Shown here piece after piece: positions 1-5,234 of a DNA stretch of 6,285 nt. The stretch spans positions 1-6,285 of IMG/VR virus record IMGVR_UViG_2778261122_000006, one strand, 5' to 3'. The notes beneath the pieces were generated by a model. That model was not told the origin of the DNA, did not search any database, and saw nothing but the letters and a program-made list of their open reading frames with translations. Position 1 is the first letter of the stretch. Each line of letters starts with the position of its first letter. Position numbers and translations under genes: made by a program. The stretch comes from a virus (taxonomy: Duplodnaviria > Heunggongvirae > Uroviricota > Caudoviricetes).

Positions 1-369
1 ATGTCAAACATCAAAAAATACATCATTGATTACGACTGGAAAGCATCAATAGAAATTGAAATCGACCATGACGTAATGACAGAGGAAAAACTTCACCAGA
101 TTAATAATTTCTGGTCAGACTCTGAATACCGACTCAATAAACACGGCTCTGTATTAAATGCTGTATTAATCATGCTGGCGCAACATGCTCTGCTTATAGC
201 AATTTCAAGCGACTTAAATGCATATGGTGTTGTGTGTGAGTTCGACTGGAATGATGGAAATGGTCAGGAAGGATGGCCTCCAATGGATGGTAGTGAAGGA
301 ATAAGAATTACCGATATCGATACATCAGGAATATTTGATTCAGATGATATGACTATCAAGGCCGCCTGA
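1..369 (+). CDS. ea10: Ea10-like early-left operon protein (122 aa)
   Basis: ORF-track ORF, ATG 1-3, stop TGA 367-369. Protein MSNIKKYIIDYDWK... matches my recollection of lambda Ea10 (122 aa) and lies directly upstream of cIII as in lambda. Confidence 0.8.
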   Translation: MSNIKKYIIDYDWKASIEIEIDHDVMTEEKLHQINNFWSDSEYRLNKHGSVLNAVLIMLAQHALLIAISSDLNAYGVVCEFDWNDGNGQEGWPPMDGSEGIRITDIDTSGIFDSDDMTIKAA

Positions 370-441
370 GCGCGGCGTTACCGCATACCAATTACGCTTC
401 ACTCGAGGCGTTTTTCGTTATGTATAAATAAGGAGCACACC

Positions 442-606
442 ATGCAATATGCCATTGCAGGGTGGCCTGTTGCTGGCTGCCCTTCCGAATCTTTACTTGA
501 ACGAATCACCCGTAAATTACGTGACGGATGGAAACGCCTTATCGACATACTTAATCAGCCAGGAGTCCCAAAAAATGGATCAAACAATTATGGCTATCCA
601 GACTAA
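442..606 (+). CDS. cIII: CIII, lysogeny-promoting inhibitor of FtsH (HflB) protease (54 aa)
   Basis: Not in the ORF track (below length cutoff). ATG 442-444 preceded by AAGGAG at 430-435. My translation: [54 protein letters not shown], stop TAA 604-606; recognisable as lambda CIII. Confidence 0.9.
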   Translation: MQYAIAGWPVAGCPSESLLERITRKLRDGWKRLIDILNQPGVPKNGSNNYGYPD

Positions 607-1095: not shown

Positions 1096-1881
1096 ATGAG
1101 TACAGCACTCGCAACGCTGGCAGGGAAGCTGGCTGAACGTGTCGGCATGGATTCTGTCGACCCACAGGAACTGATCACCACTCTTCGCCAGACGGCATTT
1201 AAAGGTGATGCCAGCGATGCGCAGTTCATCGCATTGTTGATCGTCGCCAACCAGTACGGCCTTAATCCGTGGACGAAAGAAATTTACGCCTTCCCTGATA
1301 AGCAGAACGGCATCGTTCCGGTGGTGGGCGTTGATGGCTGGTCCCGCATCATCAATGAAAACCAGCAGTTTGATGGTATGGACTTTGAGCAGGACAATGA
1401 ATCCTGCACATGCCGGATTTACCGCAAGGACCGCAATCATCCGATCTGCGTTACCGAGTGGATGGATGAATGCCGCCGCGAACCATTCAAAACCCGCGAA
1501 GGCAGAGAAATCACGGGGCCGTGGCAGTCGCATCCCAAACGGATGTTACGGCATAAAGCCATGATTCAGTGTGCCCGTCTGGCCTTCGGATTTGCTGGTA
1601 TCTATGACAAGGATGAAGCCGAGCGCATTGTCGAAAATACCGCATACACCGCAGAACGTCAGCCGGAACGCGACATCACTCCGGTTAACGATGAAACCAT
1701 GCAGGAGATTAACACTCTGCTGATTGCCCTGGACAAAACATGGGATGACGACTTATTGCCGCTCTGTTCCCAGATATTTCGCCGCGACATTCGCGCATCG
1801 TCAGAACTGACACAGGCCGAAGCAGTGAAAGCTCTTGGATTCCTGAAACAGAAAGCCACTGAGCAGAAGGTGGCAGCATGA
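1096..1881 (+). CDS. bet: Bet (Red-beta) single-strand annealing recombinase (261 aa)
   Basis: ORF-track [41 protein letters not shown]..., 261 aa; recognised as lambda Red-beta. Stop overlaps the exo start (ATGA). Confidence 0.97.
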
Positions 1882-2558
1882 CACCGGACATTATCCTGCA
1901 GCGTACCGGGATCGACGTGAGAGCTGTCGAACAGGGGGATGATGCATGGCACAAATTACGGCTCGGCGTCATCACCGCTTCAGAAGTTCACAACGTGATA
2001 GCAAAGCCCCGCTCAGGAAAGAAGTGGCCTGACATGAAAATGTCCTACTTCCACACCCTGCTGGCTGAGGTTTGCACCGGTGTGGCCCCGGAAGTTAATG
2101 CTAAGGCGCTGGCATGGGGAAAACAGTACGAGAACGACGCCAGAACCCTGTTTGAATTCACTTCCGGCGTGAATGTTACTGAATCCCCGATCATCTATCG
2201 CGACGAAAGTATGCGCACCGCCTGCTCTCCCGATGGTTTATGCAGTGACGGCAATGGCCTTGAGCTGAAATGCCCGTTTACCTCCCGGGATTTCATGAAG
2301 TTCCGGCTCGGTGGTTTCGAGGCCATAAAGTCGGCTTACATGGCCCAGGTGCAGTACAGCATGTGGGTGACACGAAAAGATGCCTGGTACTTTGCCAACT
2401 ATGACCCGCGTATGAAGCGTGAAGGACTGCATTATGTCGTGGTTGAGCGGGATGAAAAGTACATGGCGAGTTTTGACGAGATGGTGCCGGAGTTCATCGA
2501 AAAAATGGACGAGGCACTGGCTGAAATTGGTTTTGTATTTGGGGAGCAATGGCGATGA
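1878..2558 (+). CDS. exo: Exo (Red-alpha) 5'-3' dsDNA exonuclease (226 aa)
   Basis: ORF-track [50 protein letters not shown]..., 226 aa; recognised as lambda exonuclease. Start overlaps the bet stop by 4 nt. Confidence 0.97.
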
Positions 2559-2977: not shown

Positions 2978-3193
2978 ATGACACCTCAGCAAGAAAACGC
3001 CCTTCGCAGTATTGCCCGTCAGGCTAATTCTGAAATCAAAAAAGCCAGACAGCAGTTTCCGGATAAAAACGTCGATGACATTTGCCGTAGCGTACTGAAG
3101 AAGCACCGCGAAACGGTAACGCTGATGGGATTCACACCGACTCACTTAAGTCTGGCAATTGGCATGTTAAACGGCGTTTTTAAGGAACGGTGA
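2978..3193 (+). CDS. Hypothetical protein (71 aa)
   Basis: ORF-track ORF 2912..3193. The internal ATG at 2978 (MTPQQENALRSIARQANSEIKKARQQFPDK...) is my preferred start because the N-terminal 22 codons from 2912 have no RBS and read as non-protein-like (MHFSGSGLHILCAYACRHGTCS). Function unknown; start uncertain. Confidence 0.55.
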   Translation: MTPQQENALRSIARQANSEIKKARQQFPDKNVDDICRSVLKKHRETVTLMGFTPTHLSLAIGMLNGVFKER

Positions 3194-3213
3194 ACATGAA
3201 AAGCAAAATCATC

Positions 3214-3236
3214 AGGGAGCTACAGGCTCCTTTTTT
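3214..3236 (+). terminator. Candidate intrinsic terminator after the 71-aa ORF
   Basis: GGAGC (3216-3220), loop TACAG, GCTCC (3226-3230), then TTTTTT (3231-3236). Short GC stem plus T-run, 23 nt after the stop at 3193. Confidence 0.45.
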
Positions 3237-3291: not shown

Positions 3292-3513
3292 ATGGCAGAC
3301 ATCATTGATTCAGCATCAGAAATTGAAGAATTACAGCGCAACACAGCAATAAAAATGCGCCGCCTGAACCACCAGGCTGTATCTACCACTCATTGTTGTG
3401 AGTGTGGCGATCCGATAGATGAACGAAGACGACTGGCCGTTCAGGGTTGTCGGACTTGTGCCAGTTGCCAGCAAGATCTGGAGCTTATCAGTAAACAGAG
3501 AGGTTCGAAGTGA
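3292..3513 (+). CDS. TraR/DksA-family C4 zinc-finger protein (73 aa), likely RNA-polymerase secondary-channel regulator
   Basis: ORF-track ORF MADIIDSASEIEELQRNTAIKMRRLNHQAVSTTHCCECGDPIDERRRLAVQGCRTCASCQQDLELISKQRGSK. Cys35-x2-Cys38-x17-Cys56-x2-Cys59 matches the DksA/TraR C4 spacing; size is typical of phage and plasmid TraR-like proteins. Confidence 0.75.
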   Translation: MADIIDSASEIEELQRNTAIKMRRLNHQAVSTTHCCECGDPIDERRRLAVQGCRTCASCQQDLELISKQRGSK

Positions 3514-3665
3514 GCGAAATTAACTAGAAGCCAAAGATAAAATCATCGCTGAGCAGGAGAAAATCGCTAACGGAGAAAAGACAGTAAGTCAGTATATGAA
3601 AACCGCATGATATCATCAGATAAAAATCGGTCGTAAAGCGAAATATTAATACCAGAATAAACGAG

Positions 3666-3689
3666 TCGAGGTAAATTATATTACCTCGA
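3666..3689 (-). terminator. Perfect 9-bp inverted repeat between convergent genes; candidate terminator for the reverse-strand membrane gene
   Basis: TCGAGGTAA (3666-3674), loop ATTATA, TTACCTCGA (3681-3689). Lies 35 nt beyond the reverse-strand stop at 3724-3726; the reverse-strand RNA downstream is moderately U-rich (CUCGUUUAUUCUGG). No T-run on the + strand. Confidence 0.4.
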
Positions 3690-3723
3690 TAAATTAACTA
3701 AAACTTGCCCGCTATATACTATC

Positions 3724-4302
3724 TCATTCAGTATCATCACGCGCGGTCTGTGCATATGTCACTACCGCACCTAATGTATTAATTTTCTTTTCAACATAGA
3801 TAATATTATCGTACTCATAATTGCCATACGGATAGCAAATGCGAATATTCTCATGTAGATCGGGGTCATCCACCTCAGCTCCAGAACAACTTTTTGAACT
3901 ACCGGAAGTATACCGATACGGTGCAACATAAGACGATGTCTCTCCAGGCAAAAAATAAGTTAGTGTTGTAAGGGGTATAATCAGAAAAAATCCAGAAAAT
4001 ATGCATATCCCTGCATAAACCTTAAGGTATGCTGACAGACTCTTCCAGCCGCTTTGTTTTACTATCCCCTTCTTAACCCAAAACAGAGATAACAGAAAAG
4101 CTATTCCCATGCTAAACAGAATGTAATAGTGGGATATACTCTGATTAAGAAACGTGACCCTGTAGATATCTGCCCGCCACCAGAAGAAAAGGAAAATAAA
4201 GATCAGCCCTGAAACTGTCATGCAAATCAAATAAGGATACGAATCTTTTTTCATGTTTAGCGCCCATAAAATTTTTCCTGCCCGGACAAATTTACCATCC
4301 AT
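3724..4302 (-). CDS. AT-rich accessory (moron) integral membrane protein, three predicted TM helices plus acidic C-terminal domain; function unknown
   Basis: ORF-track reverse ORF 3724..4347, whose first codon is GTG. ATG candidates are at 4302 (MDGKFVRAGK...), 4254 (MKKDSYPY...) and 4221; none has a strong SD, so the start is uncertain. Hydrophobic segments LICMTVSGLIFIFLFFWW, YYILFSMGIAFLLSLFWV and VYAGICIFSGFFLIIPLTTLTYFL, with Lys-rich loops. GC is about one-third by eye, versus over 50 percent in flanking genes. Confidence 0.7.
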   Translation of the reverse strand: MDGKFVRAGKILWALNMKKDSYPYLICMTVSGLIFIFLFFWWRADIYRVTFLNQSISHYYILFSMGIAFLLSLFWVKKGIVKQSGWKSLSAYLKVYAGICIFSGFFLIIPLTTLTYFLPGETSSYVAPYRYTSGSSKSCSGAEVDDPDLHENIRICYPYGNYEYDNIIYVEKKINTLGAVVTYAQTARDDTE

Positions 4303-4528
4303 TTTTTGCGCAGAAAATAGCTCATTACTTACTGCACAATAATACACAAAATTGCGTAAATTTTTTGCATGGATTTTAGCTCTTTCAGCCGACGTTTAAG
4401 GGGTAAAGAGCATTTCCTAAAAGCAACTGACCAACCCAACAGAATGGGCTACCGCTTACGTTGAGAGCAAAAAAGTGTATAGCAGCAATGAACAGCATCC
4501 TCGCACTGACGGGGATTTCTTTTATCTG

Positions 4529-4553
4529 AGCTCGCTACGGCGAGTTTTGTTTT
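4529..4553 (+). terminator. Candidate intrinsic terminator or attenuator immediately upstream of the 114-aa gene
   Basis: CTCGC (4531-4535), loop TACG, GCGAG (4540-4544), then TTTTGTTTTA (4545-4554). The T-run is on the + strand only and runs into the GGAGA RBS of the ORF starting at 4567. Confidence 0.4.
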
Positions 4554-4566
4554 ATGGAGACAAGAA

Positions 4567-4911
4567 ATGTCAGATTTGGCTATGAAGGTTTTGAAATGGC
4601 AATCAACTGGCGATGTCGGCATCAGTAGCGCAACTCTTGCCTCAATCGCATGTGGCCTGAAAAAGAATATCTATGGTCATCACTTCGGCGCTCCCCATGA
4701 CGCAGCAGACTTTCGGCGATGCGTTGCACTTGTTGAGCAGATTCCAGAAATCAGAGATTCATTCGACAAGGTTGCAAAGCGCGTTCCGGCATTCAAAGGA
4801 ATCCTCAACGAATGGGATTCACTCGTTGCTCTGTTGAAGTCTGAAATGAAGACGTACGGGAACAAAGCACCAGAGACTTACAGAAGAATCAGCGAGCTAC
4901 GCAAGGACTAA
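4567..4911 (+). CDS. Hypothetical protein (114 aa), accessory gene upstream of xis
   Basis: ORF-track ORF MSDLAMKVLKWQSTGDVGISSATLASIACGLKKNIYGHHFGAPHDAADFRRC..., GGAGA (4556-4560) 6 nt before ATG 4567, stop TAA 4909-4911. No TM segments and no family I can name. Occupies the position taken by ea8.5 in lambda but is not that protein by length. Confidence 0.75.
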   Translation: MSDLAMKVLKWQSTGDVGISSATLASIACGLKKNIYGHHFGAPHDAADFRRCVALVEQIPEIRDSFDKVAKRVPAFKGILNEWDSLVALLKSEMKTYGNKAPETYRRISELRKD

Positions 4912-4967
4912 CCCGCCTCACACTCGATGAGGCCTGTTCATTTCTCAAGATATCCAGACCTACCATC

Positions 4968-4991
4968 GCCGCATCAATGCGGCTTTTTCTT
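4968..4991 (+). terminator. Intrinsic terminator upstream of xis
   Basis: Perfect 6-bp stem GCCGCA (4968-4973), loop TCAA, TGCGGC (4978-4983), then TTTTTCTT (4984-4991). Textbook hairpin plus T-run. Confidence 0.6.
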
Positions 4992-5003
4992 GCGTGTAAT
5001 TGC
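4990..5003 (+). promoter_or_regulatory. CII-binding site TTGC-N6-TTGC of a pI-type (int) promoter
   Basis: TTGC (4990-4993), GTGTAA, TTGC (5000-5003): the direct-repeat motif recognised by lambda CII, positioned over the xis start region as at lambda pI. The -10 and transcription start could not be confidently assigned by eye. Confidence 0.65.
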
Positions 5004-5015
5004 GGAGACTTTGCG

Positions 5016-5234
5016 ATGTACTTGACACTTCAGGAGTGGAACGCACGCCAGCGACGCCCAAGAAGCCTTGAAACAGTTCGTCGATGGGTACGCGAGTGCA
5101 GGATATTCCCTCCTCCGGTTAAGGATGGAAGAGAGTATCTGTTCCACGAATCAGCGGTAAAGGTTGACTTAAATCGACCAGTAACAGGTAGCCTTTTGAA
5201 GAGGATCAGAAATGGGAAGAAGGCGAAGTCATGA
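5016..5234 (+). CDS. xis: Excisionase Xis (72 aa)
   Basis: MYLTLQEWNARQRRPRSLETVRRWVRECRIFPPPVKDGREYLFHESAVKVDLNRPVTGSLLKRIRNGKKAKS is recognisable as lambda-type Xis. GGAG (5004-5007) precedes ATG 5016. The ORF-track start at 4977 lies inside the upstream terminator hairpin and is rejected. The 3' end overlaps the int start by 23 nt. Confidence 0.93.
   Translation: MYLTLQEWNARQRRPRSLETVRRWVRECRIFPPPVKDGREYLFHESAVKVDLNRPVTGSLLKRIRNGKKAKS

Follow-up and report, generated by a model that had tools for sequence, protein, structure and literature searches.

Two hairpins, each followed by a run of U residues, lie in tandem on one strand just upstream of the gene for a 114-aa protein (ORF114) in the stretch of prophage DNA that we analysed (6,285 nucleotides; hereafter the window). 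They are probably tandem intrinsic terminators that insulate the genes ORF114, xis and int, with antiterminated transcription from the leftward promoter pL reading through them. The hairpin closer to ORF114 (hairpin 2) is already known as a predicted terminator of phage lambda, and its upstream partner (hairpin 1) was given the name of a terminator in 1991.

The window corresponds to the leftward early (pL) operon of a prophage of the lambda/434 kind, carried on the + strand. According to the list of open reading frames, its + strand gene order is ea10, cIII, kil, gam, bet, exo, a set of accessory genes, xis and int (Table 1), which on comparison matches the order in the lambda and phage 434 records; given this lambda-type order, we take the + strand to be the one transcribed leftward from pL. 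When the whole window was compared with Rfam at E ≤ 1, the sole match was the lambda cIII thermoregulator, with none at the hairpins or in the spacer that holds them. A consensus scan found 15 terminator-like sites in the window, 11 of them on the + strand, compared with 6.2 ± 2.1 in shuffled sequences, and promoter-like matches at chance level (8 compared with 9.5 ± 3.0). The nearest full prophage is that of Escherichia coli SCU-301 (97.4% identity), in which the genes run cI, a small gene at the N position, sieB, ral and ea10 through to xis and int.

Table 1. Coordinates of the features discussed, in order along the window.
Feature	Position	Strand	Basis and remarks
ea10	1-369	+	ORF list
lambda cIII thermoregulator RNA (RF01804)	429-487	+	Rfam, 88.5 bits, E 3e-21; extends across the start of cIII
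bet	1096-1881	+	ORF list
exo	1878-2558	+	ORF list
orf60a/orf63-like genes	between exo and the DksA/TraR gene	+	ORF list
DksA/TraR zinc-finger gene	3292-3513	+	ORF list
Terminator-like hairpin just past the membrane-gene stop	3666-3689	-	Consensus scan; -12.3 kcal/mol
Membrane gene, 176 aa from ATG 4254	3724-4254 (or to 4347)	-	ORF list, phrog_1416, start-codon comparison
Candidate extended -10, TGgTAAATT	4289-4297	-	Best in a crude scan; consensus match only
Candidate -10, TATTAT	4339-4344	-	Sequence; best -35 poor (TGCAAA at 19 nt)
Probable remnant of the 3' end of the + strand gene that lies before hairpin 1 in Stx phages	4471-4496	+	Alignment; hits start at 4471
Hairpin 1, stem and tail	4497-4526	+	Consensus scan, folding; homologue of 434 t-L4 and lambda predicted t3
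Hairpin 2, stem and tail	4528-4553	+	Sequence, consensus scan, folding; homologue of lambda predicted t4
Shine-Dalgarno GGAGA (4556-4560), 6-nt spacer and ORF114 ATG (4567)	4556-4569	+	Sequence and comparison
ORF114	4567-4911	+	ORF list
t'I-type terminator hairpin GCCGCATCAATGCGGC followed by TTTTT	4968-4988	+	Consensus scan; t'-I in M60848 and OL657226
xis	5016-5234	+	ORF list
int	5212 to window end	+	ORF list

The earlier note on this DNA had pointed to a + strand hairpin ahead of the GGAGA ribosome-binding site of the 114-aa gene, and sequence, consensus scan and folding all confirmed it. In hairpin 2 a 5' arm (GAGCTCGC, 4528-4535) and a 3' arm (GCGAGTTT, 4540-4547) form eight pairs, four of them G-C and two, at the ends of the stem, G.U, around the loop TACG (4536-4539). 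The result is a cUACGg tetraloop of the UNCG class with a C-G closing pair, and tetraloops of this class closed by C-G are unusually stable. The U-tail, TTTTGTTTTA, begins within the last stem pairs and ends at 4553, with U at eight of the nine bases 3' of the stem. The free energy of hairpin 2, folded as a 32-nt RNA segment, was -11.9 kcal/mol, with a z-score of -4.13 and no equally stable fold among 200 dinucleotide shuffles. The element has structural features of an intrinsic terminator, namely a G+C-rich stem within the range of ~5-14 bp, a loop of 3-8 nt and a U-tract directly 3'. The reverse strand offers no U-tract at this site, so hairpin 2 would act in one direction.

A second terminator-like hairpin, absent from the earlier note, lies 31 nt upstream of hairpin 2. 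This hairpin 1 (ATCCTCG-CACTGA-CGGGGAT) has a stem at 4497-4503 and 4510-4516, the loop CACTGA and the tail TTCTTTTATC, and folds at -8.6 kcal/mol (z -2.6). The two hairpins fold independently of one another, and for the 63-nt segment that includes both, the minimum-energy fold is also the centroid. Chance alone would place a calculated ~0.1 terminator-like sites on one strand of the 219-nt spacer, compared with the two observed.

Comparison of related loci argues further that the hairpin-1 position needs a terminator. At least four unrelated stems, most of them G+C-rich, occur at this position, all on the U-tract TTTCTTTTAT (74 copies). The stem families that precede the common tail TTTCTTTTATCTGA are ATCCTCGC...GCGGGGAT, CCGCTTAATGCGG, AACCCGCAGAGTGCGGGTT and a weak one, AACCAATTGATGGTT. 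Covariation counts for hairpin 1 are understated, because the register of pairing differs among the alternative stems, and the swapping of unrelated stems ahead of one common U-tract is the better structural argument. In most relatives a + strand protein gene ends directly 5' of hairpin 1, its stop codon joined to the hairpin as TAAC(A/T)ATCC. The window probably retains the decayed 3' end of such a gene, which in a visual alignment shows a weak similarity to the end of the Stx-phage gene (~23 of 30 bases shared) and has lost the stop codon; a short-word blastn search of 4348-4500 for a gene remnant gave no match. In the Salmonella phage g341c, a P22-like phage, a different hairpin (GGTCGCAATGCGGCC, then T6), annotated as a Rho-independent terminator, splits the arms of hairpin 1 (CCTCG...CGAGG; extracted locus 2455-2510), and hairpin 2 and ORF114 follow unaltered.

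Both hairpins have named or predicted counterparts in well-known phages. A megablast search against phages aligned window positions 4300-4569 with phage 434 at 96.7% identity. In the 434 record of 1991 (M60848; int, xis, ORF114, ORF55, ORF-22+) positions 2292-2322 are labelled as a terminator, 't-L4'; its sequence, CAGCATCCTCGCACTGACGAGGATTTCTTTT, is hairpin 1 of the window, and hairpin 2 is present directly 3' of it, without annotation. In lambda both hairpins lie on the complement strand between the ea8.5 stop and orf55 (lambdap35), at 29355-29305 (hairpin 1, 29355-29336; hairpin 2, 29324-29305). Bloch et al. (2014; PMC4195576, Table 4) applied ARNold to the lambda exo-xis region and listed five predicted terminators, t1-t5, of which t3 and t4 were called by Erpin and RNAmotif; t3 is hairpin 1 and t4 is hairpin 2. 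The printed sequences of t1 and t2 matched the window exactly, at 2619-2641 (inside the orf60a-like gene) and 3214-3232, respectively, and t5, or t'I, has a variant copy at 4968-4983. The copy in 434 is labelled t'-I, and the 434 record cites PMID 6305007 for it. The pI CII box, TTGC-N6-TTGC at 4990-5003, comes right after the t'I-type terminator and upstream of xis. A further hairpin, GCCTCACACTCGATGAGGC, which lacks a U-tract, lies just past the ORF114 stop at 4915-4933 on the + strand.

In lambda and 434 alike, homologues of the two hairpins thus occupy the same place in the operon; in the window the hairpins lie on the pL-transcribed strand within the exo-xis interval. Of the roles that the earlier note had offered for its hairpin, that of an antitermination-dependent terminator is the one supported by this homology to 434 t-L4 and lambda t4 and by the position between exo and xis. 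Points that weigh against a terminator include the short stem of hairpin 2, the status of lambda t3 and t4 as software predictions, and the restriction of the 434 annotation to hairpin 1. Searching the literature, we found no mapped 3' ends, termination efficiency or N-dependent read-through for hairpin 2 in any phage; Bloch et al. (2014) proved the relevant source, and papers that mention tL3 dealt with a synthetic terminator.

From structure, homology, conservation and the mosaic joints described below we infer a mechanism in which the hairpin pair, placed between the variable accessory block 3' of exo and the ORF114-t'I-pI-xis-int block, would stop unmodified RNA polymerase at either U-tract (4522-4526 or 4550-4555), at a distance of 3 to 40 nt from the ribosome-binding site of ORF114 downstream. 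Basal activity of pL, read-in or any + strand start in the AT-rich spacer could supply unmodified polymerase; it counts against the mechanism, however, that with a divergent upstream neighbour there is no obvious + strand transcript to terminate besides that from pL. ORF114, xis and int would thereby be silent in the lysogen. Once modified at nutL to resist termination, polymerase would pass both hairpins, as happens at tL1-tL3 and t'I in lambda, and ORF114 would accordingly be a delayed-early gene dependent on antitermination. The positions of N and nutL fall outside the window, and the antitermination step therefore rests on operon homology.

The same comparisons place the hairpins at points where lambdoid genomes have exchanged modules. 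Sequence comparison identifies the ~60-nt unit ATTTCTTTTATCTGA - hairpin 2 - TTTTGTTTTATGGAGA as a module joint conserved among lambdoid phages, and the terminator tails together with GGAGA are seams for the exchange of accessory cassettes in the exo-xis region. The breakpoints of the mosaic coincide exactly with TTTCTTTTAT and TTTTAT(T)GGAGA, and the phage matches returned by megablast begin at window position 4471, 4497 or 4516. In E. coli SCU-301 (NZ_CP051751.1; extracted locus 8497-9400) the hairpin-1 tail is separated from hairpin 2 by exactly one inserted + strand gene of 801 bp, with the repeated sequence ATTTCTTTTAT on either side of it. The joint unit was found in lambda-like, Stx, P22-like (g341c) and TorI-type prophages, and window positions 4300-4620 (the spacer and the start of ORF114) were covered to at least 80% in 828 E. 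coli genomes; the element is present in some 1,900 genomes of this species.

Three loci deserve separate description. With the 801-bp insert of SCU-301 come a further two terminator-like hairpins, GCCGGCGCAAGCCGG (then T6) and GCCGCTTAATGCGG. In E. coli Res13-Lact-PEA14-20 (extracted locus 8424-9935) a block 99.7% identical to window 4300-4620, with the order zinc-finger gene, reverse membrane gene, hairpins and ORF114, adjoins torI (a KplE1-type excisionase gene) beside Mu-like tail genes with IS elements, and from these surroundings we conclude that the module travels between prophage types. A 3.3-kb contig labelled as part of a Segatella copri metagenome-assembled genome (JAJXBQ010000292.1) carries ORF114 at 99% identity along with both hairpins, and seems to be part of an enterobacterial prophage that was binned wrongly with a Bacteroidota genome.

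Mosaicism of this kind could mean that the unit formed by the hairpin-1 U-tract, hairpin 2 and GGAGA is kept mainly as a recombination joint, a short stretch of homology for cassette exchange in which the terminator shape is incidental or secondary. The exact placement of the breakpoints and match starts, the near invariance of the unit while both of its flanks change, and its spread over four kinds of prophage are what such a role would produce. However, it leaves unexplained why each upstream module brings its own stem and why the hairpin is stable and carries a U-tract, and it is compatible with termination and not opposed to it. As the main reason for the conservation of the unit we consider it unlikely.

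Insulation by tandem terminators also has to be weighed against the chance that hairpin 2 does little. We collected 74 copies of hairpin 2 from related loci, most of them through a scan of viral_contigs with ORF114 (a scan of genome_contigs with ORF114 gave three loci only); by sequence search, the Rac prophage of E. coli K-12 is without the hairpin motif. Hairpin 2 is fully paired and nearly invariant across the 74 copies, with variation at only three stem positions, and in the 29 distinct 63-nt sequences among them it is paired in 100% of cells. Five of its pairs are invariant, and the other three vary on one side only, in a wobble-preserving manner (A-U/G.U, U-A/U.G and C-G/U.G). No pair showed a two-sided compensatory change, and there was no significant covariation relative to shuffles in the 29 sequences; the relatives, at 90-100% identity, are too similar for a covariation test to decide, and recent common ancestry could by itself account for the conserved pairing. 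It is thus conceivable that hairpin 2 is a weak or non-functional relic inherited with ORF114 or ORF55, or perhaps only an RNA-stability or processing element, as its short stem with two terminal G.U pairs, the missing compensatory changes and the uninformative conservation among such close relatives would allow. Against this stand a stability that no shuffle equalled, a UNCG-class loop, a near-perfect U-tract, the agreement of two independent predictors on the lambda copy, and the retention of pairing at all three polymorphic stem positions, which together make a relic improbable. A still more doubtful idea is that the unit ATTTCTTTTAT - CTGA - hairpin 2 - TTTTGTTTTATGGAGA might be more than a terminator, namely a dedicated insertion site for accessory cassettes in lambdoid, P22-like and TorI-type prophages for which hairpin 2 is conserved, for example a structured single-strand recombination substrate like integron attC, or that hairpin 2 might yield a stable, functional RNA derived from the 3' end.

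Upstream of the hairpins lies a gene that runs the other way. The membrane gene is a moron-like insert transcribed against pL, such that pL transcription must cross it in antisense. Its product belongs to phrog_1416, a PHROG of unknown function, and gave no match in Pfam or PADLOC. The gene is surrounded by a low-GC island (3520-4470; GC 0.35-0.40, compared with 0.45-0.53 downstream) that among sequenced phages occurs only in 434, 2B8 and mEp332. The earlier note had favoured the ATG at 4302 or a later codon as the start of this gene, and it is the later codon that stands. All ten of ten relatives contain one extra base near window position 4280 (CCGGGGCAGG, CCGGGTCAGG or CCGGTGCAGG, where the window has CCGGGCAGG), which puts both GTG 4347 and ATG 4302 out of frame in the relatives; the in-frame extension upstream accordingly reads MDGKF... 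from ATG 4302 in the window and MSYFLRKKW... in the relatives, and ATG 4254 (MKKDSYPYL...) is the only shared start.

The promoter proposed for this gene fared less well. The hexamer TATTAT, suggested as its -10 element, is present on the reverse strand, but its best -35 is poor, and between 4230 and 4566 the consensus scan listed nothing promoter-like, whichever strand was read. The best match in a crude scan, the candidate extended -10 TGgTAAATT, would leave a leader of ~28 nt to ATG 4254. TATTAT overlaps a TTGT-N6-TTGT sequence that is labelled a CII site in the phage 434 genome record; we rejected this site as a feature, since by our own estimate TTGY-N6-TTGY is expected several times per such genome by chance. 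We likewise rejected the 56-aa 'putative membrane protein' ORF of the 2022 434 record (window 4329-4499, - strand; 434 extracted locus 3030-3200), which has no open frame in the window, where an indel falls within its span (CTG-ACC versus CTGCACC), and which is probably not a gene.

The spacer itself could in principle give rise to a short + strand non-coding RNA, starting within 4348-4496 and divergent from the membrane-gene promoter, that the hairpins would end. This was another of the roles put forward for the hairpin; a U-rich tail would suit binding by Hfq, ~150 nt of non-coding sequence is available upstream, and a weak match, TTGAGA-17-AGCAAT, occurs at 4461-4489. That match is without the -11 A, however, and no promoter-like site scored at least 9 of 12; segment 4348-4496 shows no structure beyond that of shuffles (z -0.27) and has no Rfam hit at E ≤ 1. 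Moreover, lambda, the Stx phages and others lack segment 4348-4470 and have the hairpins right after the stop of a protein gene; that segment is confined to 434-type phages, whereas the hairpins are widespread. Among published prophage small RNAs, the Pas sRNA genes adjoin Q, lysis and structural genes and not this region, and the paper on the small RNA svsR makes no mention of a terminator, xis or an intergenic context. The spacer holds no credible + strand promoter, and such a transcript is very improbable.

The closeness of hairpin 2 to the ORF114 ribosome-binding site has a simpler origin. ORF114 corresponds to the ORF114 of phage 434 and to p30 of HK022; it belongs to phrog_1229, another PHROG of unknown function, and had no match in Pfam or PADLOC. 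In lambda and 434 hairpin 2 leads into ATGGAGATGATAAATG, the start of ORF55, and in 434 ORF114 comes after ORF55, preceded by a weak t'I-like hairpin, a T run and ATTGGAGACAAGAAATG. In the window TTTTATGGAGA continues straight into CAAGAAATG, the start of ORF114, with the joint inside the short repeat TTTTAT(T)GGAGA and ORF55 absent; it is thus the missing ORF55 cassette that brings hairpin 2 up against the ORF114 ribosome-binding site. Loci that do bear ORF55 have a terminator-like hairpin over the ORF55 stop (CCGCCTGATGGCGG, then T5-T8), and this, together with the same GGAGACAAGAAATG, precedes their ORF114. The GGAGA is part of the conserved joint, and the bases beyond it vary with the gene that follows, which across the copies is ORF114, ORF55 or a third gene beginning ATGGCCTGTTCAACATTCA. 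As the same hairpin and GGAGA stand before three different genes, the abutment is not a regulatory design for ORF114. We therefore give almost no credence to the last of the proposed roles, in which hairpin 2 would be one arm, the terminator, of an attenuator or riboregulator controlling ORF114. It does lie directly 5' of the ribosome-binding site, and one minimum-free-energy fold encloses it by a weak UUUCU/GGAGA pairing. However, the centroid lacks this outer helix, the fold of the 67-nt segment does not reach significance (z -1.79), each hairpin folds on its own and no competing helix appears, Rfam gave no match, the upstream sequence differs between phages such that no leader is conserved, and three unrelated downstream genes are served by the same hairpin.

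Read as tandem terminators, the hairpins would give ORF114, xis and int of this prophage a defined upstream insulator. They also add a second hairpin to the old 't-L4' annotation of 434, which can now be linked to the predicted t3 and t4 of lambda, and they show that terminator U-tracts are exchange seams in the exo-xis region for cassettes such as ORF55, the 801-bp gene and the reverse membrane gene. Those who engineer or annotate lambdoid and Stx prophages, in which exo-xis genes influence the lysis-lysogeny decision, may find this useful. Beyond correct annotation its importance is small, the element being an ordinary one, known as a prediction.

The closest known counterpart of hairpin 2, lambda t4, is the same element: lambda has TTTTATCTGAACTCGC-TACG-GCGGGTTTTGTTTTATG where the window has TTTTATCTGAGCTCGC-TACG-GCGAGTTTTGTTTTATG, a difference of two wobble-type stem substitutions, on the same strand, with the same partner hairpin 31 nt upstream and the same GGAGA after it. 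The neighbours differ, with t4 lying after ea8.5 and before orf55 and hairpin 2 lying after the divergent membrane gene and before ORF114. The likeness to 434 t-L4 extends to the divergent membrane gene; there t-L4 is hairpin 1 with hairpin 2 right after it, the annotation covers the former and not the hairpin flagged at the outset, and ORF55, which the window lacks, is found between hairpin 2 and ORF114.

Two broader systems frame the pair. Lambda tL1-tL3 and t'I have been characterised experimentally; they are intrinsic terminators in the N-antiterminated leftward operon and bar unmodified transcription from the genes downstream. The hairpin pair differs from them in sequence and position, and the window holds its own copy of t'I. 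Lambdoid phages have an architecture of morons and module boundaries, in which accessory genes come with their own promoter or terminator and short conserved sequences mark the boundaries. The exo-xis region likewise has cassettes bounded by terminator hairpins, with breakpoints at repeated U-tract and Shine-Dalgarno sequences, and its reverse-strand gene lies on a low-GC island and has a terminator-like hairpin of its own; this is a likeness of genome organisation and not of molecular mechanism, and implies no recombinase-specific site.
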